A DNA stretch of 64,000 nucleotides from Candidatus Eiseniibacteriota bacterium (GCA_965223205.1 OZ244990.1:2864170-2928169), one strand, 5' to 3'. Positions 6,276 through 50,578 are shown, numbered from the stretch's first letter. Program-made: numbers and translations. Notes: generated from the sequence alone by a model not told the origin.

Positions 6276-7652
6276 TCAGGGTGCGCTAGCCACCTGGGTT
6301 TGAGCCTGCCCTTCGAGGCGCTCCAAACGCTCCGCCAACGCCAGACACGTCGCTTGGAGTACGGCGATCTCGGCGTTCTTTTCGGCGCGTAGCTCTTTGA
6401 GCGCTTCGATCAACACCGGGCCGAGCTTCGAGTAGTCCATCCCCACCGCATCGGCGCCGTTCTCTTCGTAGCTGACGATTTCAGGAAGGATCTCCCCGGT
6501 TTCCTCGGCGATCATGCCGAGGTCCGGCTGGCCGCCGTGCTCGGCGTCCCAATCGAAGGTAACGCCCCTGAGCGCCAAGACTTTGTCGAGCGCGTCCTCG
6601 ATCGGTGTGATGTTGTGCTTCCAGCGCCTCGACGACGCCGCGCCGTAGTTCACCCCCACTCCATCGGCGTAGAAGTCGAAGCCCGTGGAGGTACTAGCCC
6701 GCCCGCGGACGCCCACTGGCGAACCCGAATTGCTCGTTGCCCAGCCGACGACGCCGGTGCCGGTGGGGCTCGAGGTCTTGCCCGTGACGCCGGTGCCGGC
6801 GCCCGATCCTTCGTGGTGGGCGATCAGTCCAAGCCCCTGCGGCGCGTAGGACTCGGCTTGAATGCCCGTACTGTCCTCGGAACGGGCGTAAATGGCGAGG
6901 CCCCCGGCGGAATTTTCGAACCGGGCTGCACGTGGCCGATCCGACCTCACGTCGAGCTGCGAGAGCAGGTCCGGTGACATCGTGCCAATCCCGACCGACT
7001 GCTGGTTGGTGACCGTCAGCGCGACTCCCTCATTGAAGAGGTGCCAGTCCTTGGTAGAACCGTCGTAGTAGTGCCAGGCGTTGGTCTCGCCCCCGGTCGA
7101 GTAGCCGTAGAACGGCGACGCGTTTTGCCCCAGGGTACTCATGTACATGCCGGCGTAGCCCGAGGTGGTGGTGGAGTGCACGCCAAAGCGTTCCGAGCCG
7201 ATCGAGTAGTCGCGGCCGATGCCGAGGAAATCACCGTCGTCGTTGACAAAGATTCCGCGCGTTGCGGCCGAGTAGGGGGTGGGCGAGACCTGTTGGCGTG
7301 GGTCCACTGCCGTCCAAAAGCTGGTCGAGGAGCGCACCAAGATTCTAAGCCAGCGCTCCTCACCAAGCGCAAAAGCATCGGTCCCGAAATCAAGCGTCAC
7401 GGTGAATCGGCCGTCTTGTACGTGCACTCCTAACAGCTCGACGTCAGCAGCGACGGGCAAGCCGCCGGTGGCTCCAGCGTAGAGGCTGAAATGAAAGTCA
7501 TACGCCCCGTTCGCCAGGGTGCCGCTATCTTTGAGTTCACCCTGATAGGTGAAGGCTGCATCGTTCTGGCCCAAAGCAAGGCTCTCGGTGCTCACCAGCA
7601 TGATGATGGCGAGAGCTGCCCGGGAGCCGAAACATCGGTCTAGGCGTGTCAT
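6276..7652 (-). CDS. Secreted glycine-rich protein with C-terminal intramolecular-chaperone (peptidase S74 / endosialidase-chaperone-like) domain; tail-fibre-like
   Basis: Signal peptide; N-terminal TFTYQGEL..DG..YDF module; Gly-rich repeats; C-terminal SSRRWKHNITPIE...LALRGVTFDWD...GMIAEE...PEIV...DYSKL.PVLIEALKEL followed by a coiled coil. This is the layout of the self-cleaving chaperone domain of phage tail fibres and tailspikes. Confidence 0.75.
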   Translation of the reverse strand: MTRLDRCFGSRAALAIIMLVSTESLALGQNDAAFTYQGELKDSGTLANGAYDFHFSLYAGATGGLPVAADVELLGVHVQDGRFTVTLDFGTDAFALGEERWLRILVRSSTSFWTAVDPRQQVSPTPYSAATRGIFVNDDGDFLGIGRDYSIGSERFGVHSTTTSGYAGMYMSTLGQNASPFYGYSTGGETNAWHYYDGSTKDWHLFNEGVALTVTNQQSVGIGTMSPDLLSQLDVRSDRPRAARFENSAGGLAIYARSEDSTGIQAESYAPQGLGLIAHHEGSGAGTGVTGKTSSPTGTGVVGWATSNSGSPVGVRGRASTSTGFDFYADGVGVNYGAASSRRWKHNITPIEDALDKVLALRGVTFDWDAEHGGQPDLGMIAEETGEILPEIVSYEENGADAVGMDYSKLGPVLIEALKELRAEKNAEIAVLQATCLALAERLERLEGQAQTQVASAP

Positions 7653-7663
7653 AGCTGGGTCTC

Positions 7664-9046
7664 CTACTGTTCTGGCGCGTACGCCGCCAGCTTGCCCTGG
7701 AGGGCGGCGACCTGCGCGTCCCTCGCGGCCTCAAGTGCGCTCAACTGCTGAGCCATGCGTTCGTTTTGGGCGATGAGGGCCTTGACTGCCTCGACCAAGA
7801 GCGGCGTCAATCGGGAGTAATCCATGCCAATTGCGTCGACGCCGTTCTCTTCATAGGCAACGATTTCGGGCAGCACTTCGCCGGTTTCCTCGGCAATCAT
7901 GCCGATGTCGTGGTGACCGCCGTGTTCTTCGTCCCAGTCAAAGGTGACGCCGCGCAGCGCCAGAACCTTCTCGAGCGGCTCCTCGATGGGCTCGACGTTC
8001 CGCTTCCAGCGCCTGGACGAAGTCGAGCCGTAGTCGGTGCCCGCTCCACTGGCAAAAAAGTCGTAGCCCGCTGGACTGACGCAGATCCCTTTCACTCCGA
8101 CCGGCGAGCCGGTTTGAGCGCGGGCCCGACCGAGCACGCCCGTCCCGGTGGCGCTGAACGCGTCCCCAAAGACCCCATGGCTACCTCCCGCGGTCGAGGT
8201 GGAGAGCGCCACCCCCCATACTCCCTTGCCCCCGGACGCGTGGCTTTCCCCGACCACGCCAAAGCCCACGCCGGAGCTGTTGGTGGCTTCGCCGAAGATG
8301 CCCTTGCCACCGAGGGTCGCGTTGGAGACCACCATGGCGTACTCGGTTCCCGAGCTGGGCAGGTGGAATGGGTAGCTGGGGCTAGAGGTCCTGACCCCGA
8401 CGAACCCGCCGTCGGTCACCGTTAGATGGGTCCCCGAGTTGTAGAGATGCCATTTGCTGGTTGTCCCATCGAAGTAGTGATAGGCGTCGACGTCTGCGCC
8501 GGCGGCGTAGCCGTAGAAGGGCCTGGCGCCTTGGCCGGTGGTGCTCGCATACATGCCGCCGAAGCCGTTCGCAACGTCCGAGTGGATGCCGAAGCGTTCA
8601 GCGCCGGTGATCGGATCAGTTCTGCCGATCCCGACGAAGGTGTTCAAAGCGTTGACCGACAAGCCGCGCGTGGCGACCGAGTAGGGTGCGCGGGTGATCG
8701 GCTGGCGCGGGCTGAGGGTGGTGAAGCCCCCGACGCCAGCCGGATAGCGCACCCTGATTTCAAGCCAGCGGTCGCTACCCGGAAACGCCGCCGGGCCAAA
8801 GTCGACGGACACGGTGAAGCGGCCGTCTTGGACCGGGACGTTCGAGTTGGAGTCGGCGCCCAGGTTGTTGCCGCCGGCCGCCGCGTCATAGAGCACCAGC
8901 TCCACGTCACACAGCCCGTCGGCTGGCGTGCCGGTGTCGGTCAGCTCGCCCTGGTAGGTAAAGGTTGTCTCGTTGCCGTGGGCGCTCCAGGCGCCGAGGC
9001 CCAGCCACAGCACTGTCGTTAGAATTTGGCGTTTCATGGTCTGCAC
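7664..9046 (-). CDS. Paralog of 6276..7652: secreted glycine-rich protein with C-terminal intramolecular-chaperone (S74-like) domain
   Basis: Same N-terminal module (TFTYQGELTDTGTPADG), Gly-rich centre and C-terminal SSRRWKRNVEPIE...LALRGVTFDWD...GMIAEETGEVLPEIV...DYSRLTPLLVEAVKAL domain. 11-nt spacing to its tandem partner. Confidence 0.75.
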   Translation of the reverse strand: MQTMKRQILTTVLWLGLGAWSAHGNETTFTYQGELTDTGTPADGLCDVELVLYDAAAGGNNLGADSNSNVPVQDGRFTVSVDFGPAAFPGSDRWLEIRVRYPAGVGGFTTLSPRQPITRAPYSVATRGLSVNALNTFVGIGRTDPITGAERFGIHSDVANGFGGMYASTTGQGARPFYGYAAGADVDAYHYFDGTTSKWHLYNSGTHLTVTDGGFVGVRTSSPSYPFHLPSSGTEYAMVVSNATLGGKGIFGEATNSSGVGFGVVGESHASGGKGVWGVALSTSTAGGSHGVFGDAFSATGTGVLGRARAQTGSPVGVKGICVSPAGYDFFASGAGTDYGSTSSRRWKRNVEPIEEPLEKVLALRGVTFDWDEEHGGHHDIGMIAEETGEVLPEIVAYEENGVDAIGMDYSRLTPLLVEAVKALIAQNERMAQQLSALEAARDAQVAALQGKLAAYAPEQ

Positions 9047-9217: not shown

Positions 9218-9246
9218 TTGCGGGCCGGCCCCGAACGGCGTAGACT
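9218..9246 (+). promoter_or_regulatory. Candidate sigma70-type promoter of the pyr operon (-35 TTGCGG, 17-nt spacer, -10 TAGACT)
   Basis: Hexamers by eye at 9218-9223 and 9241-9246, positioned upstream of the PyrR-binding motif and leader terminator. Confidence 0.3.
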
Positions 9247-9265
9247 GGCGGCGAACGTGCTGGAG

Positions 9266-9297
9266 CCTTTTAACCCGGTCCCGTGAGACCGGCAAGG
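9266..9297 (+). promoter_or_regulatory. PyrR-binding RNA motif (anti-antiterminator loop) in the pyr leader
   Basis: GGUCCCGUGAGACCGGCAAGG fits the conserved PyrR site pattern G-UCC-N-G-N-GAG-...-AAGG (compare B. subtilis GUCCAGAGAGGCUGAGAAGG). Lies 45 nt upstream of an intrinsic terminator and about 105 nt upstream of pyrR. Confidence 0.5.
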
Positions 9298-9340
9298 GTT
9301 CGTTTCAATGAATCGACATCACCCAGAGTTCGACGCCTGA

Positions 9341-9371
9341 CTTCACCCCGCGCGGGGAGAAGTTTTTTTTT
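9341..9371 (+). terminator. Intrinsic terminator / attenuator of the pyr leader
   Basis: CTTCaCCCC-gcgc-GGGGaGAAG hairpin followed directly by a run of 9 T (9363-9371), 30 nt upstream of the pyrR ATG. Confidence 0.6.
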
Positions 9372-9400
9372 GCCCAGACTGGGTGTGGATGGAGCTACGT

Positions 9401-9964
9401 ATGTCTTCAACGAGCGACAAGGTCGAGCGTCGCGTCATTATGGGCCCCCAGGAGATACGCCGGGCCTTGACCCGCATAGCCCACGAGATCGTCGAGCGCA
9501 ACCGCGGTACCGAAGGGCTTGGGTTGATCGGCGTCGAGCGCCGCGGTGTGCCTTTGGCCCGCCGGGTCGCCGAGCTGATCCAGGAGTTCGAGTCCACCGA
9601 GGTGCCGGTGGGCAACTTGGACATCACCCTCTACCGGGACGACTTGGCAACCATCGGCCCACAGCCGATCGTGCGGGCCACCGCCATCCCCTTCGATATC
9701 ACCGATCGGGTGCTGGTCTTGGTCGACGACGTGCTCTACACCGGCCGCACCGTCAGGGCGGCGCTCGATTCGATCATCGACTTTGGGAGGCCCAAGGTCA
9801 TTCAGCTGGCGGTCTTGGTCGACCGCGGGCACCGCGAGCTGCCGGTGCGGGCCGACTACGTCGGCAAGAATCTGCCGACGTCGTTGAATGAGATTGTCGA
9901 CGTGCGTCTCACCGAGCAGGACGGCGAGGAGCTGGTCGCCATCCGCAAACGCCAGAGCGTATGA
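9401..9964 (+). CDS. pyrR: Bifunctional pyrimidine operon regulator / uracil phosphoribosyltransferase PyrR
   Basis: [42 protein letters not shown] (PRPP-binding) and [22 protein letters not shown] motifs. Start placed at the ATG for MSSTSDK; an in-frame ATG at 9389 and GTG at 9383 are alternatives. Confidence 0.9.
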
Positions 9965-11013
9965 AGGGTCGTCGCGACCTCCTCGGCCTCTGCGACTTGG
10001 AGCGCGCCGAGATCGTCCATCTCCTCGACTCCACGCGGCGCTTTCTGGCGGTCTTGGAGCGTGCGGTTCCCAAGGTGCCTACCCTCCGCGGTCAGACAGT
10101 GGTCAATCTGTTCTACGAACCCTCGACCCGCACGCGCGTGTCGTTTGAGCTCGCCGAGAAGCGGCTGTCGGCCGACACCGTCAACTTCTCGGCCTCGGGA
10201 TCGAGCGTCTCGAAAGGCGAGACGCTTCTGGACACCGCCCAGAACATCATGGCCATGCAGATCGACATCCTGGTGGTGCGCCACTCGGCCCCCGGGGTCG
10301 CGGCTTTCTTGGCGCGCCACCTGGATTGCGCGGTGGTCAACGCCGGCGACGGTGCCCACGAGCACCCCACCCAGGCGCTCTTGGACCTCTACACCATGCG
10401 CGAGCACAAGGGGCAGGTCGACGGCTTGAAAGTGGCGATCGTCGGCGACGTCGAGCACAGCCGCGTGGCGCGTTCCAACATCTGGGGCCTGGCCAAGCTG
10501 GGTGCTGAAGTGGTGGTCTGCGGGCCGCCCACCCTGGTGCCGCCGGCGCTTGAGACTTTAGGGTGTCGGGTCACCCACGAGATGGACGACGCCGTGTCCG
10601 GCGCCGACGTCTTGATGGCGCTGCGGCTGCAGCGCGAGCGGCAACAGGCTGGGCGGTTGCCCAGCGTTCGCGAGTATGCCCGCCTCTACGGGATCGACGC
10701 CGCCCGTGTTGGGCAGGCGGCGCCCGATTGCCTGGTGATGCACCCCGGCCCGATGAACCGCGGCGTCGAGATCACCACTGACGTCGCCGACGGCGCCCAG
10801 TCGGTCATCCTCGAGCAAGTGCGAAACGGCGTCGCCCTGCGCATGGCCGTTCTCTACTGGGCGAGCGGCCTGGATCGCTCCCCCGAGGGCGACGAGGGCG
10901 AGGCGCCCGCGGGCGCCTCAGAGACGCGAGAGGACGAAGCGCCGAGTTACTCGCCCGCAGACCGCGCCGGTGCGCGCGCAGTCACGTCGCCGAGAAAGGA
11001 GACGCATGTCTAG
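9961..11013 (+). CDS. pyrB: Aspartate carbamoyltransferase catalytic subunit
   Basis: STRTR carbamoyl-phosphate-binding motif ([11 protein letters not shown]) and HPGP motif (MHPGPMNRG). ATGA start/stop overlap with pyrR. About 40-aa acidic C-terminal tail. Confidence 0.92.
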
Positions 11014-12301
11014 CGCTGAGCGGTTGTGGATTTGTGGCGCCACCCTCTTCGATGGCCGGGGTGTCGATCAGGTCGCGGACGTCTTCATCGAAGACGGCCG
11101 GATCGCCGGGATCGGCGCCGCCGACGGCGATGCCCAGCGCCTGGACGCCCGGGGCGGCCTGCTTGTCCCCGGCCTCTGTGATGTGCACGTGCACTTTCGA
11201 GAGCCTGGCCAGGAGTACAAAGAGACCGTGGCTTCGGGCGCACGGGCGGCGGCGCGCGGCGGCATGACCGACGTGGCCTGCATGCCCAACACCCAACCAC
11301 CCATCGACCAGCTGGCGATTGTCCGACTCATCCAAGAACGCGCCGCCCGAGCCGGCGCCGCCCGCGTCCATCCGATCGCCTGCGTCACCGCCGGCCAGGC
11401 GGGCGCCGAACTCACCGAGATGGCCGAGCTGGCCGAGGCTGGGGTGGTTGCCTTCTCGGACGACGGTCTGCCGGTGGCCTCCGCCGAAATCATGCGGCGT
11501 GCCCTCGAATACAGCCGCATGCTGGGGCTACCGATCATCGACCACTGCGAAGAGCCGGCTCTGGCTAAGGGCGGCGTCATGCACGAAGGCGTTGTCTCCA
11601 CCCAGCTCGGGCTGCGCGGCATGCCCGCCGCTGCCGAAGAAATCATGGTGGCGCGCGACTTGCGGTTGGCCGAGCTGACCGGCGGGCACATTCACTTGGC
11701 GCACATGTCCACCGCCGGCTCGGTGGCGCTCATTCGAGATGCCAAGGGTCGAGGCGTGCGGGTGACTGCCGAGGTCACCCCGCATCACCTGGTGCTGACC
11801 GACGAAGCGGTGCGTTCCTACGACCCAGTCACCAAGGTGAACCCGCCGCTCAGGACCGACGCCGACGTCCGGGCGCTCCGCGCCGCCCTGGCCGACGGCA
11901 CCATCGACTTGGTGGCTTCCGACCACGCACCCCACGCGGTCACCGAGAAAGAGCAGGAGTTCGACCTCGCGCCGTTCGGGATGATCGGCGTCGAGACGCT
12001 GTTACCGATTGTCTGGACTGAACTCGTGGTGCCCGGCGCCATCACCCGGGAGCGCGCCATCGAAGTGATGAGCCATGCCCCGCGCCGGTTGATCGGGCTC
12101 GAGGAGGTCACCTTTGCGGTCGGACGGGCGGCGGATCTGACCCTCTTGGATCCCAAGGAAACCTGGGCCGTGGATCCGCGCCAGTTGGTTTCGGCGTCCC
12201 GCAATTGCCCGTTCGCCGGCCATCCGGTCGTCGGGCGGGTCGCCGGTACTTGGGTGGCGGGGCGTCAAGTGTGGGCTGAGACCCGGGCGGAGGCGATATG
12301 A
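11006..12301 (+). CDS. pyrC: Dihydroorotase (type I, about 430 aa)
   Basis: DVHVHFREPG metal-binding motif; AAGGAG ribosome-binding site 5-10 nt upstream of the ATG at 11006. The ORF-track start at 10970 is an in-frame N-terminal extension. Confidence 0.9.
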   Translation: MSSAERLWICGATLFDGRGVDQVADVFIEDGRIAGIGAADGDAQRLDARGGLLVPGLCDVHVHFREPGQEYKETVASGARAAARGGMTDVACMPNTQPPIDQLAIVRLIQERAARAGAARVHPIACVTAGQAGAELTEMAELAEAGVVAFSDDGLPVASAEIMRRALEYSRMLGLPIIDHCEEPALAKGGVMHEGVVSTQLGLRGMPAAAEEIMVARDLRLAELTGGHIHLAHMSTAGSVALIRDAKGRGVRVTAEVTPHHLVLTDEAVRSYDPVTKVNPPLRTDADVRALRAALADGTIDLVASDHAPHAVTEKEQEFDLAPFGMIGVETLLPIVWTELVVPGAITRERAIEVMSHAPRRLIGLEEVTFAVGRAADLTLLDPKETWAVDPRQLVSASRNCPFAGHPVVGRVAGTWVAGRQVWAETRAEAI

Positions 12302-13493
12302 AGCGGCTCGAAAGGGCTCGGTTAGTGTTGGAGGACGGTCGCGTCTTTAGGGGCACGCGCGTCACCGGCTCTGGGATGGTGACCGGCGAGGTGGTGTTCA
12401 ATACTGCCATGACCGGTTACCAGGAGGTCTTGTCCGACCCTTCCTACGCCGGCCAGATCGTCGTCTTGACCCAACCGCAAATTGGCAACACCGGGGTGAA
12501 CGCCGTCGATATGGAAGCGGTCCAACCGCTCTGCCGGGGTGTGGTGGTGCGCCGCATGTCGGGGCGTCCGTCCAGTTACCGGGCGACCATGACGTTGCCC
12601 GAGTGGTTGTTCCACCACGGCGTCGCCTGCATCGAAGGCGTCGACACCCGGGCGGTCACCCACCACCTGCGCCGTCAAGGCGCCCTGCGCGGGGCGATGG
12701 AGATGGCCGCCGGGCGCTCGGATTCGGCGGAGGCGTTGGAACGAGCGCAGCGCGAGCCCTTGATGGCTGGCAGCGACTGGGCGATGCGGGTGGCGCACGC
12801 TGAGCCCCGGTGTTTCTCTGGAACCGGCGCCGACAAACACTGGTCGCCCCTGCGGCCTGCGGCACCGGTAGTCCCGGGGGACCCCGAGCCGGTGGCACTT
12901 GCGGCGCGGTGTCCATTTCCCATCCCCGGCGTGCCGCGGGTGGTGGTGGTCGACTTCGGGGTCAAAGACGGCGTGCCGGAGGGGTTGGTGCGCGCCGGCG
13001 CCCAGGTCTTGGTGGTGCCGCCGACGACCGATGCCAGCGCCATTGCCGCCACCGGCGCCGACGGCGTCGTCTTGTCGAACGGCCCCGGTGACCCGGCGGC
13101 GGTCCTTGGGGGTGATGCGCTGGCGCGATCTCTCCTCGGTCGCCTGCCCGTGCTCGGCATCTGCTTGGGCCACCAGTTGATGGCGCGCGCCCTGGGGCTT
13201 TGCACCTTCAAGCTGCCGTTCGGACACCACGGCGCCAACCACCCGGTGCAGGCGCTCAACACCGGTCGGGTTTGGGTGACCTCGCAAAACCACGGGTTTG
13301 CGGTGGCACCGCCGGCGGCCGGGCAGCCAGCGATCGAAGTGACCCACGTGAGTTTGGTGGATGGAACGGTCGAAGGGTTCAGAGTCCCCGACCTCCGCGC
13401 CTTCGCCGTGCAGTTTCACCCCGAAGCATCGCCTGGTCCGCACGATGCTTTCGGTGTCCTCGATGGATTCGTTACGTCCCTGAACGAGGTGCC

Positions 13494-16715
<3,222 letters not shown>

Positions 16716-47755: not shown

Positions 47756-49340
47756 ATTCCCGGTTGTCGCCAGCGCGTTGTTCTTGCTCCTGGGCTTGCC
47801 GTTCTGGGAGTACCGCACGGACGACACCTACATCTTCCTGCGCTACGCCCAGAACTGGGCGGCCGGACTGGGGCCGGCGTTCAACCCGGGGGAGCCGACC
47901 TACGGGTTTTCCAGCCCGCTGTGGTTGGCCGCATTGACCGGTGCCGAGCGCCTCGGGATCGGCGGGCTGACCGCTGCCAAGGTCTTGGCGGTCGCTTGTG
48001 GGGTGGCTTCGGTCTGGGGCTTTTGGTGGTGGGCGCGGGCGTGGCTCCCGGCCAGCGCCGCCGGTTGGGTCACTTGTGCCTGGGCGGCGAACGGTTGGTT
48101 GGTGCGCTGGAGTGCGGCGGGGATGGAAACCGCCCTGATCTTGGCGTGGACGGTGTGGTGCTTGGCGCTCGACGCCCGGGCGTGGCAGCGCCGGGAGGTG
48201 AGTTGGGGGGCGGCGGTGTGCGCGGGCGCTGCCGCGTTGACGCGGCCGGAAGGAGCAATTCTCGCCGCCGTATTGTGCGTTGCCACCGTCTGGCGCGCCG
48301 GTTGGCGCCACGCCCTCGCCCAGGGTGTCATCGTCTCGCTCCTCGTCGTCCCTTGGCTCCTCTATGCGCAGTTCACCTTCGGCGGCTTCCTGCCGATTAC
48401 CGGCGCCGCCAAAGGGACGGTCGGTGTGGCGTGGGGGATCGACCCGCTCCGGGATGTGGCGCGGGCGGTGGCGGCGACCAGCTGTCTTGAAGTTCTATTG
48501 GCCGGCCTCGGCATCGGCTTGGCCCTGGGTGCTGACCGGCGTCCGCCCGGCTGGGGGACGGCGCTCGGTTGGCTCGGTGGTTTGATCCTCTTCTACAGCC
48601 TCACCGGCTTTGACGTCCTGTCGCGCTACGCCCTGCCGATCGTGCCCGTGGTCGTTGTTGCCGGCTTCTGGGAATTGGAGCGCTTGCCGGGTCGCTGGGC
48701 GCCGGGCGTTCTTCTCGCCTTGATGACCGTGTGGTGGGCGTGGGTCGGGGCGCAGGCCGAACTCAGCCCTAGGGTTTGGGGGATAGCGGCGGTGGCCACG
48801 GCAGCCGTGGTGGTGGGACTTCACCACCGGCTGTGGCCCAGGCGATTGGCACTCGCGGCGGCGCTCGTGGTCTTGGGGAATGCCGGTCTTTTGGCCAACG
48901 TCGTCTACCCGCACACCCACGCCTTCTCGCGCGGGGTGATCGACTGCTTCCAGGGGCTCGGTACGTGGTTCGCCGAACACACCGAGCCGGACGCCCAGGT
49001 GGCGATCGCTGATATCGGTGCTTTTGGCTACTATTCGAACCGCCGGGTCGTCGACATGGCGGGTCTCATTACCCCCCAGATGATTCCTTTGGTGGACGCC
49101 TACCCGATCGAGGACATCGCCCGCGGTCTCCTGTTCGAGGGTTTTGCCAGGCCGGCTTACTTGGTGGACCGGGCCGACCAACCGGAGCGGCTCCTGAACC
49201 ACCCGTCGGGGGCGTTCCAACCGTTCGACGGCTCGCCCTGCGCCATTCGGGGACTCGGCGTGCGCTCGCCTGCCACCATTTTCTACACCGCGTATCGGCT
49301 AGACTGGCCCCGCTTCGAGCGCTGGCGCGGCGGGCACTGA
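47742..49340 (+). CDS. Polytopic integral membrane protein, putative GT-C-type glycosyltransferase (ArnT/PMT-like); function uncertain
   Basis: About 12 predicted TM helices with a conserved-looking first loop (RTDDTYIFLRYAQNWAAGLGPAFNPGEPTYGFSSPLW). Start set at the first TTG after the upstream stop; TTG at 47778 is an alternative. The ORF-track start at 47316 is an in-frame extension. Confidence 0.6.
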   Translation: MRSLRFPVVASALFLLLGLPFWEYRTDDTYIFLRYAQNWAAGLGPAFNPGEPTYGFSSPLWLAALTGAERLGIGGLTAAKVLAVACGVASVWGFWWWARAWLPASAAGWVTCAWAANGWLVRWSAAGMETALILAWTVWCLALDARAWQRREVSWGAAVCAGAAALTRPEGAILAAVLCVATVWRAGWRHALAQGVIVSLLVVPWLLYAQFTFGGFLPITGAAKGTVGVAWGIDPLRDVARAVAATSCLEVLLAGLGIGLALGADRRPPGWGTALGWLGGLILFYSLTGFDVLSRYALPIVPVVVVAGFWELERLPGRWAPGVLLALMTVWWAWVGAQAELSPRVWGIAAVATAAVVVGLHHRLWPRRLALAAALVVLGNAGLLANVVYPHTHAFSRGVIDCFQGLGTWFAEHTEPDAQVAIADIGAFGYYSNRRVVDMAGLITPQMIPLVDAYPIEDIARGLLFEGFARPAYLVDRADQPERLLNHPSGAFQPFDGSPCAIRGLGVRSPATIFYTAYRLDWPRFERWRGGH

Positions 49341-49883
49341 ATGGACTGGTCGGCGCTTTTCTCGGGAGCCGGAACCACCCTCGGGTGGGTATGCTTCTAT
49401 CTGGGGCTGGTCGTCGGGCTCCTCTGTATTCCGCTCGGGCTGGGTGGCACCTTCATCATCTTGGCGGACGCTTTGATCTTGGCGCTGGTGACCGAGTTCC
49501 GGACGGTCGGGATCGGTTCCCTGGTGGCCATGGCGGCCCTGGCGGTGCTGGGTGAGGTGATCGAATCGTTCCTGGGGGTGGTGACCGCCCAGCGCTTTGG
49601 TGCTTCGCGGTGGGCGATGTTTGGAACCTTTGCCGGCGGCATCGCCGGCGCCGTCTGGGGAGCACCTTTTGTGCCGGTGGTAGGGAGTTTGTTGGGCGCC
49701 TTCGTCGGCGCCTTCGCTGGTGCCTTTTTGGCGGAAATCTTGTACCGGCGCCACCTAGGTGCGAGTCTGCGGGCAGGGTGGGGCGCGTTTCTCGGGCGAC
49801 TTCTGTCGACCGTCATCAAGTTTCAACTGGGCTTGGTCATGATATGGATTGTCATCTTCGACTTGCGCGGGTGGCGCTCTTGA
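49341..49883 (+). CDS. DUF456-family small membrane protein
   Basis: 180-aa Gly/Ala-rich protein with four TM helices; ATG abuts the upstream stop codon. Confidence 0.7.
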   Translation: MDWSALFSGAGTTLGWVCFYLGLVVGLLCIPLGLGGTFIILADALILALVTEFRTVGIGSLVAMAALAVLGEVIESFLGVVTAQRFGASRWAMFGTFAGGIAGAVWGAPFVPVVGSLLGAFVGAFAGAFLAEILYRRHLGASLRAGWGAFLGRLLSTVIKFQLGLVMIWIVIFDLRGWRS

Positions 49884-50578
49884 CGCTCTGTGCCATCGCG
49901 CCGGCGGCGGCCGGCGGCTCCGAGGGCGCCCACCAGACTGCGGCGCGGCGGGCGATGGTTGAGCAAACGATTGTGGCACGGGGCGTTGCTGACAGCTTGG
50001 TGCTCGAGGCGCTGCGCCGAGTCCCCCGGCACCGGTTTGTGCCGCGCTCTCACCGCCACCTGGCGTACACCGATCACGCCCTGCCGATTGGGGACGGCCA
50101 GACCATCTCGCAGCCCTACATCGTCGCTTTGATGACCGAACTGCTCGAACTCAGGCCCGGCGATCGGGTGTTGGAGGTGGGCACCGGGTCGGGCTACCAA
50201 GCGGCGGTCTTGGCCGAGATCACTTCAGAGGTCTACTCGATCGAGATCATCGCCGAGTTGGCCGAGGGTGCTGCCCGGCGCTTGGCGGCGCTCGGCTACG
50301 ACACCGTCAACGTGCGGGCCGGCGACGGCTACCGGGGTTGGCCGGAGGCGGCGCCCTTTGACCGTATCATTCTGACCGCCGCCCCCGTCCACTTGCCGAT
50401 TCCCTTGGTCGACCAACTCCGGGTCGGCGGCATTTTGGTGGCACCCTTGGGGGAAGAGCGGCAGGTGCTCATGCGCTACCGGAAGGACGCCACGGGCGCG
50501 CTGGTCGAGGAAGCGGTGACGCGCGTGCGGTTCGTCCCGATGACCGGCGAAGCGGAGATCGACCCCAATGCGCCCTAG
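49844..50578 (+). CDS. pcm: Protein-L-isoaspartate O-methyltransferase, possibly with N-terminal signal peptide
   Basis: SAM-binding motif LEVGTGSGYQAAVLA, GDG motif and TISQP motif. Start at ATG 49844 yields the signal-like MDCHLRLARVALLTLCAIAPAAA; the ATG at 49955 (MVEQ...) is the cytoplasmic-form alternative. Confidence 0.85.
   Translation: MDCHLRLARVALLTLCAIAPAAAGGSEGAHQTAARRAMVEQTIVARGVADSLVLEALRRVPRHRFVPRSHRHLAYTDHALPIGDGQTISQPYIVALMTELLELRPGDRVLEVGTGSGYQAAVLAEITSEVYSIEIIAELAEGAARRLAALGYDTVNVRAGDGYRGWPEAAPFDRIILTAAPVHLPIPLVDQLRVGGILVAPLGEERQVLMRYRKDATGALVEEAVTRVRFVPMTGEAEIDPNAP

Follow-up and report, generated by a model that had tools for sequence, protein, structure and literature searches.

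Does the pyr operon of a high-GC bacterium outside the Firmicutes carry a PyrR-dependent transcription attenuator in its leader, and if so, does that attenuator work by the refolding of RNA that is best described in Bacillus? The question arises from a stretch of DNA of 64,000 nucleotides (hereafter, the window), in which a sequence-only reading had noticed a candidate promoter, a PyrR-binding motif and an intrinsic terminator ahead of pyrR and had taken the arrangement to be that of PyrR-mediated attenuation as in Bacillus.

The first gene after this leader is a genuine pyrR (Table 1). Its product scores 243 bits against the NCBIfam PyrR equivalog model NF003549 (cut-off 138), and its best match in the PDB is 1UFR, the "pyr mRNA-binding attenuation protein" of Thermus thermophilus (E = 7.6e-72). 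Two stretches of the window's PyrR, of 11 and 12 residues, are kept in the alignment. A cognate PyrR protein is encoded beside the leader element. The genes that would be regulated span 9961 to 16715 on the plus strand and follow pyrR in the order pyrB-pyrC-carA-carB; because the gene ends overlap or abut, we expect pyrR-pyrB-pyrC-carA-carB to form a single operon. The neighbouring upstream gene (7664-9046) is on the opposite strand and divergent, so the terminator that we describe below is not its 3′ end. This neighbour and the adjacent minus-strand gene at 6276-7652 encode paralogous proteins of about 460 amino acids, and the C terminus of each has a Peptidase_S74 (endosialidase intramolecular chaperone) domain; both genes are divergent from the pyr operon. 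The G+C content of the window is 66%, and its strongest deviation in strand composition is at 48001-50000 (AT skew of -0.365 and GC skew of 0.11).

Table 1. Positions of the leader elements and genes of the pyr operon, counted from the first nucleotide of the window.
Feature	Position	Strand	Details
Candidate promoter	9218-9246	+	-35 TTGCGG (9218-9223), 17-nt spacer, -10 TAGACT (9241-9246)
Predicted PyrR-binding hairpin	9264-9300	+	Lower stem 9264-9270/9294-9300; upper stem 9275-9280/9287-9292
Internal loop of hairpin, 5′ side	9271-9274	+	UAAC (also given as UUAAC)
Hairpin loop	9281-9286	+	CCGUGA
Putative Shine-Dalgarno sequence of leader ORF	9294-9298	+	AAGGG in the 3′ arm of the binding hairpin; invariant in 9/9 leaders; 9 nt 5′ of ATG 9308
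Putative leader mini-ORF	9308-9340	+	MNRHHPEFDA, 10 codons; TGA 9338-9340 abuts the terminator 5′ arm
Intrinsic terminator	9341-9371	+	Hairpin 9341-9362 (CUUC-A-CCCC, loop GCGC, GGGG-A-GAAG), then U9 at 9363-9371
Shine-Dalgarno sequence of pyrR	9391-9394	+	GGAG, 6 nt 5′ of ATG 9401
pyrR	9401-9964	+	RNA-binding regulator, also uracil phosphoribosyltransferase; Pfam PF00156
pyrB	9961-11013	+	Pfam domains
pyrC	about 10970-12301	+	Pfam domains
carA	12298-13527	+	Pfam domains
carB	to 16715	+	Pfam domains

The Rfam model of the PyrR binding site (RF00515) aligns over its full length (model positions 1-115) to positions 9263-9370 on the plus strand, with a score of 48.3 bits and posterior probabilities near 1 over 9263-9300. 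The E value is 9.2e-6 in a search of 401 nt and 0.0015 in a search of the whole window on both strands, and this is the sole match with E of 0.5 or below among 4227 Rfam families in the whole window. The match was seen in E-value mode; a default scan of the window with gathering thresholds reported no match. The curated gathering score of RF00515 is 54 bits, which is an operational cut-off and not a biological feature. Hence the covariance-model search that had been suggested as a check did find the expected element, full length and with a low window-wide E value, but just under the gathering score. The hallmarks of the family are all present: the C-G-GA terminal loop, the UCC/GG(A) upper stem, the UUUAA internal loop, and the AAGG 3′ arm. 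The context is also as expected (on the sense strand, in the 5′ leader, and 30 nt ahead of pyrR-pyrB-pyrC-carAB). By sequence, structure, context, and cognate protein, the leader element belongs biologically with RF00515, although it scores just below the operational threshold. The motif at 9277-9297 that the sequence-only reading had matched to the PyrR RNA-binding loop lies inside the hairpin that the model aligns. The lower stem of this hairpin has two G-C, two G.U, and three A-U pairs, and the hairpin folded alone is predicted to have a free energy of -14.6 kcal/mol. PyrR would be expected to bind it, in dependence on UMP or UTP.

We compared the leader with those of the closest relatives. 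Among representative genomes, the closest PyrR (79% identity) is from a Candidatus Eisenbacteria MAG, L001; the other matches in representative genomes are at most 68% identical and come from many phyla. A metagenome scan found no relative closer than 67%, and a protein search gave a group of PyrR proteins that are 76-86% identical to the window's. Our clade set comprises the window and eight relatives, namely L001 and seven contigs (L161-L167), which are labelled as Eisenbacteria and whose PyrR proteins are 76-82% identical to the window's. The nearest relatives of pyrC (60-68% identity) are on the same contigs as the clade's PyrR proteins. Since the nearest relatives of both proteins share contigs, the window appears to be from a deep relative of this uncultured, Eisenbacteria-labelled clade and not from a Firmicute. 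The G+C content and these neighbours bear out the earlier suggestion of a non-Firmicute, high-GC host.

The relatives score 44.5-54.0 bits against RF00515 (L167 reaches 54.0), and the threshold is passed by fetched loci of Rokubacteria, Nitrospirae, Omnitrophica, and Actinomycetota. PyrR sites outside the Firmicutes, including those of high-GC lineages, are already detected by Rfam, so the element is not new in kind.

The promoter, the binding hairpin, and the terminator are common to the window and its eight relatives. The nine leaders align over the binding hairpin (GGGCCUUUUAACUCGGUCCnGCGAGACCGGAAAGGGUUC), which is nearly invariant and keeps its stem pairs, and over the terminator with a U run of 6-9. 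Comparative folding of the nine leaders with RNAalifold gives these two structures as conserved and nothing between them, and two of the terminator's pairs show changes on both sides. Long open frames are also found in these leaders. In the window, a frame of 202 amino acids (9283-9891, plus strand) begins at a GTG within the binding loop and overlaps pyrR in another reading frame; it is most likely an artefact of high G+C, and we consider the other long off-frame ORFs in the leaders (with similar ones in L001) to be products of high G+C as well.

The candidate promoter agrees with the sigma-70 consensus at 7 of 12 positions, and a sigma-70 promoter scanner did not report it. The pattern TTGnnn-N17/18-TAnnnT occurs exactly once in the 160 nt 5′ of the binding hairpin in each of the nine clade leaders; its background is 10 matches per 128 kb (the window, both strands). 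Conservation of the motif across the clade thus supports the promoter call, which had been made from a weak match to the consensus. Transcription would then start near 9253. Most of the clade leaders (L001 at 2747-2790, L161-L163, and L165-L167) have an extra hairpin, variable in sequence, 3′ of the -10 box and 5′ of the PyrR hairpin; the distance from the end of the -10 box to CCTTTTAA is 33-53 nt in these leaders. This hairpin is missing from the window and L164, where the gap is 19-21 nt.

The stem of the terminator consists of 4 bp, an A.A mismatch, and another 4 bp, with a predicted free energy of -10.3 kcal/mol. This makes it the weakest terminator of the clade (-12.6 to -20 kcal/mol in the others). 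Its T9 is the sole run of at least seven T or A bases in 64 kb. A terminator scanner missed 9341-9371 because it needs five uninterrupted pairs and the mismatch breaks the stem. The terminator and its 9-T run are nevertheless where the sequence-only reading had put them, at about 30 nt ahead of the start codon: 29 nt separate the end of the U run from the ATG of pyrR. From sequence and predicted structure, we consider it very probable that the leader contains an attenuator that binds PyrR and has a working terminator. A small hairpin, CCCA-GAC-UGGG, is also found at 9374-9384, after the U run and before the Shine-Dalgarno sequence of pyrR; the clade consensus at that site is GCC..CCGGG..CCGG, and the clade consensus ahead of the pyrR ATG is GAGGAGCGA.

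How would PyrR control this terminator? In Bacillus, PyrR stabilizes an anti-antiterminator hairpin (review, PMC6524683). Such a switch requires an antiterminator in which the 5′ strand of the terminator pairs with the 3′ strand of the binding hairpin. We looked for such a structure in several ways. Folding of the full leader gave 68,701 structures that are at most 8 kcal/mol above the optimum, and in none of them are 4 or more nt of the terminator 5′ arm (9341-9349) paired to RNA further upstream. Penalizing the binding hairpin, the terminator, or both, in full and truncated transcripts, gave no antiterminator either, and when the hairpin was forbidden, the arm was free. In our first folds, a long-range helix (9247-9256/9329-9338) was dominant, but we discounted it because a transcript that starts near 9253 would leave out most of its 5′ strand. 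With folds that start at 9251-9255, the pairing probability of the arm stays below 0.5 and no antiterminator forms.

We then ran the same truncated-transcript test on other fetched loci as a control (the window itself is judged from the full-leader and hairpin-forbidden folds). In Bacillus paralicheniformis (L055) and many other Firmicute loci, 8-14 nt of the arm pair with the 3′ half of the hairpin; in Eisenbacteria L001 and in the Deinococcota loci L033 and L038, only 2-5 nt of the arm are paired, of which at most two are paired to the 3′ half of the hairpin. The mutually exclusive antiterminator and terminator that the sequence-only reading expected, with and without the binding hairpin, were therefore not obtained: of the Bacillus geometry, the PyrR-binding leader element, the terminator, and pyrR itself hold up, and the switch between alternative structures does not. 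Because an antiterminator was tested for and not found, these folding models indicate that the leader is not a Bacillus-type three-structure attenuator.

The best case for a Bacillus-type switch is a helix of 4 bp. GGGU at 9296-9299, in the 3′ arm of the binding hairpin, is the best complement to the terminator 5′ arm (ACCC at 9345-9348; -5.8 kcal/mol), and the two might re-pair unless PyrR is bound. In seven of the nine clade leaders, no upstream sequence pairs better with the terminator 5′ arm than the 3′ arm of the hairpin (CGGAAAGGG), and a pyrimidine-rich 5′ arm with a purine-rich 3′ arm is typical of RF00515. For an RNA of the window that begins with the hairpin and ends at the apex of the terminator, GGGU/ACCC is in the optimum. 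Among the relatives, pairing of the arm with the 3′ half of the hairpin is predicted at -4.8 to -7.5 kcal/mol in seven of eight and is strong in L165 (-14.7 kcal/mol), and a truncated fold of L166 adopts such a structure. However, the helix in the window would close a loop of about 45 nt, it is lost once the fold starts at the presumed transcription start, and it is absent both from the near-optimal folds of the full leader and from the comparative fold. It is also far weaker than its counterparts in the control Firmicute loci, and the terminator would displace it easily. We consider this explanation unlikely.

What the clade leaders do share, besides the hairpin and the terminator, is a start codon. 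ATG or GTG is found 8, 9, or 10 nt 3′ of AAGGG in all nine leaders, in a spacer that is otherwise poorly conserved. The first 50 nt 3′ of AAGGG contain 15 ATG or GTG codons across these leaders, and nine of them are at offsets 8-10. Empirically, the probability that a sequence has a start codon in a 3-nt interval of this kind is about 0.10, to be set against roughly five independent start-codon contexts, as the nine leaders are related (L001, L162, and L166 clearly share ancestry there). In the window, ATG 9308 is the only start codon between AAGGG and the terminator, and it opens a frame that reads ATG AAT CGA CAT CAC CCA GAG TTC GAC GCC TGA.

The positions of the stop codons divide the clade. 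The window, L163, L164, and L165 have short ORFs of 10-15 codons; counted from the terminator's first base, their stops are at -3, -3, -1, and +6, so that none is more than 3 nt before the terminator. The stop in the window is 1 nt ahead of the terminator, and any overlap with the terminator would come only from the presumed footprint of the terminating ribosome. L001, L162, L166, and L167 have long ORFs of 41-51 codons that run through the terminator and end at most 16 nt from the start of pyrR or overlap it (in L001, the leader ORF overlaps the start as TGATG). In L161 (1054-1779), the leader ORF begins with GTG and is in frame with pyrR with no stop between them, so translation from the leader GTG would yield a PyrR with an N-terminal extension.

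Several considerations temper this evidence. AAGGG would be a partial Shine-Dalgarno sequence only, and it would be kept anyway as part of the PyrR site, so its invariance is not independent evidence. The leader peptide's sequence is not conserved, and the length of the ORF carries little weight, as chance alone should give open frames of 10-50 codons at 66% G+C. AAGGG has a predicted pairing probability of 0.5-1.0 in free RNA and so is mostly paired, in a hairpin that is predicted to be stable by itself; a ribosome would need to open this hairpin. Finally, ATG 9308 is 63 nt from the termination point, so a ribosome would be in time only if the polymerase pauses, and we identified no pause site. 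On balance, we regard it as somewhat probable that the leader has an ORF whose putative ribosome-binding site, AAGGG, lies inside the PyrR hairpin, and that the mini-ORF may be translated from there.

These elements suggest the following scheme. Transcription would begin near 9253, and the nascent RNA would fold into the binding hairpin. If pyrimidine nucleotides are plentiful, PyrR with UMP or UTP would clamp the hairpin and AAGGG would stay paired; no ribosome would load onto the 10-codon ORF, the terminator hairpin would form, and transcription would stop in the U9 run. If pyrimidines are scarce, PyrR would be off the RNA, and a ribosome could open the weak lower stem and translate the mini-ORF. 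With TGA in its A site, the ribosome would cover roughly 15 nt 3′ of the P-site codon (9335-9337), including the whole of the terminator's 5′ arm (9341-9349). The hairpin would then be unable to form, and the polymerase would continue into pyrR. This picture uses the size of the ribosome footprint and the spacing between the ribosomal P site and the active site of the polymerase, which is about 34-36 nt; the polymerase would be in the U run when the ribosome reaches the stop codon. In short, the leader would be a PyrR attenuator of pyrR-pyrB-pyrC-carAB that is coupled to leader translation, of the type that was proposed for Thermus, and we lean towards this mechanism as a whole.

Another possibility is that the leader lacks any means of antitermination: its terminator would be leaky, and PyrR on the adjacent hairpin would raise its efficiency, for instance by slowing the polymerase or by making the leader's fold more compact. 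The window's terminator, with its mismatch and its low stability relative to the rest of the clade, is what this explanation would call for, and every predicted fold has both the terminator and the binding hairpin. But the strong terminators of the relatives would not leak, and the start codon at Shine-Dalgarno spacing in nine of nine leaders and the placement of the stops would be left unexplained. We know of no precedent for PyrR merely raising the efficiency of a leaky terminator, and we judge this explanation to be distinctly improbable.

Alternatively, PyrR might act as a translational repressor only, as in Mycobacterium smegmatis, with a terminator that is unrelated to regulation. High-GC actinobacteria use PyrR in this way, and the binding hairpin of the window does sequester a Shine-Dalgarno-like sequence. 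That sequence, however, is about 100 nt 5′ of the GGAG of pyrR, so the hairpin cannot occlude the pyrR start, and a conserved terminator with the window's only U9 run lies between the two sites. This makes repression of translation alone very improbable. Last, a chance resemblance in an ordinary untranslated leader, to which the Rfam score below the gathering threshold might point, is hardly credible for an element that has a window-wide E value of 0.0015, is in the expected place and orientation, and is conserved in eight relatives.

The layout with a leader ORF is also found in Meiothermus rufus (L038), with the Shine-Dalgarno sequence AAAGGAGAG, an ATG, and 30 codons that run through the terminator; in a Deinococcota genome (L033), with a stop, TGATG, on the start of pyrR; and in MAGs of Nitrospirae, Rokubacteria, and Omnitrophota. 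The Rfam threshold is passed by three of these ORF-type loci: Nitrospirae L080, Rokubacteria L062, and Omnitrophica L023. We compared 69 elements (from L001-L167) that have both a binding loop and a terminator; the median predicted antiterminator duplex is -6.3 kcal/mol in those with a leader ORF versus -10.1 kcal/mol in those without (Mann-Whitney p = 1e-4, or 0.0035 if the clade is left out). The elements with a leader ORF are mainly from non-Firmicutes (Deinococcota, Nitrospirota, Rokubacteria, Omnitrophota, and Zixibacteria). PyrR attenuators of the leader-ORF type thus seem to be widespread and to be anticorrelated with RNA antiterminators, which is of modest added value.

More tentatively, and with some doubt, we propose that two classes of PyrR attenuator may replace each other across phyla. 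One would be the RNA antiterminator of the Firmicutes; the other would depend on the ribosome, with the hairpin sequestering the Shine-Dalgarno sequence of a leader ORF, and would be found in Eisenbacteria-like bacteria, Deinococcota, Nitrospirota, Rokubacteria, and Omnitrophota. Within the second class, the window and L163, L164, and L165 would form a sub-variant in which a very short ORF parks the terminating ribosome at the foot of the terminator, whereas in the others the ribosome would translate through. PyrR in this class would gate the loading of ribosomes instead of the refolding of RNA. A leader ORF in place of an RNA antiterminator would also explain why such elements have Rfam scores at or below the threshold.

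The finding of a PyrR leader opens no new field. For a lineage that is uncultured and poorly known, it annotates the control region of a pyrimidine operon, and it corrects the mechanism that would have been expected there. For the modelling of PyrR sites in non-Firmicutes, it offers a comparison: leaders that lack an RNA antiterminator have a start codon at Shine-Dalgarno spacing from the hairpin that PyrR would bind. It also makes an old and little-tested proposal for Thermus checkable across several phyla.

How does the leader compare with known systems? It resembles that of Bacillus subtilis in its CCUUUUAA internal loop, its GGUCC-G-GAGACC upper hairpin, its AAGG 3′ arm, and its terminator with a U run, in a pyr leader with PyrR as the regulator. 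It differs in that no antiterminator overlaps the 3′ arm of the hairpin and the 5′ arm of the terminator. The pyr operon of B. subtilis has three attenuators, whereas the window has one PyrR site. In addition, the leader start codon that is conserved in the window's clade is absent from the Bacillus locus L055.

The pyr leader of Mycobacterium smegmatis is, like the window's, from a high-GC organism, and according to Fields and Switzer (2007), a study cited in PMC13328217, it reportedly has a PyrR hairpin that occludes a ribosome-binding site, as is predicted for the window. The difference is in which site is occluded: in M. smegmatis, it belongs to the pyr gene that comes first, and no terminator is known, whereas in the window, it would be the site of a mini-ORF ahead of a terminator. 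In the pyrBI attenuator of E. coli, a ribosome that translates the leader close behind the polymerase keeps the terminator hairpin from folding. For the window, too, we propose that the attenuator of a pyrimidine operon is read through by means of a ribosome on a leader ORF. The E. coli attenuator, however, is not known to involve PyrR or a binding hairpin, and it relies on UTP-sensitive pausing of the polymerase and not on a protein that blocks ribosome loading.

The closest likeness is to the pyr operon of Thermus strain ZO5, for which Van de Casteele et al. (in J Bacteriol in 1997) are said to have proposed a PyrR scheme coupled to leader translation. There too, the 3′ arm of the PyrR hairpin contains the putative ribosome-binding site of a leader ORF, a terminator follows, no RNA antiterminator is known, and pyrR is the first gene. 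The Meiothermus and Deinococcota loci described above (L038 and L033) show exactly this Thermus-type layout, and among solved structures, the window's PyrR is closest to the Thermus protein. There are two differences. The Shine-Dalgarno sequence is weaker in the window (AAGGG) than in the loci of Thermaceae and Deinococcota (AAGGAG(G)). In those loci and in five of the clade relatives, an ORF of 22-51 codons crosses the terminator and ends at or over the start of pyrR, whereas the ORF in the window has 10 codons and stops before the terminator, so that masking would be by a terminating ribosome. Overall, the best reading of these comparisons is that the leader would work most like the Thermus type, with an ORF that ends at the foot of the terminator instead of crossing it.
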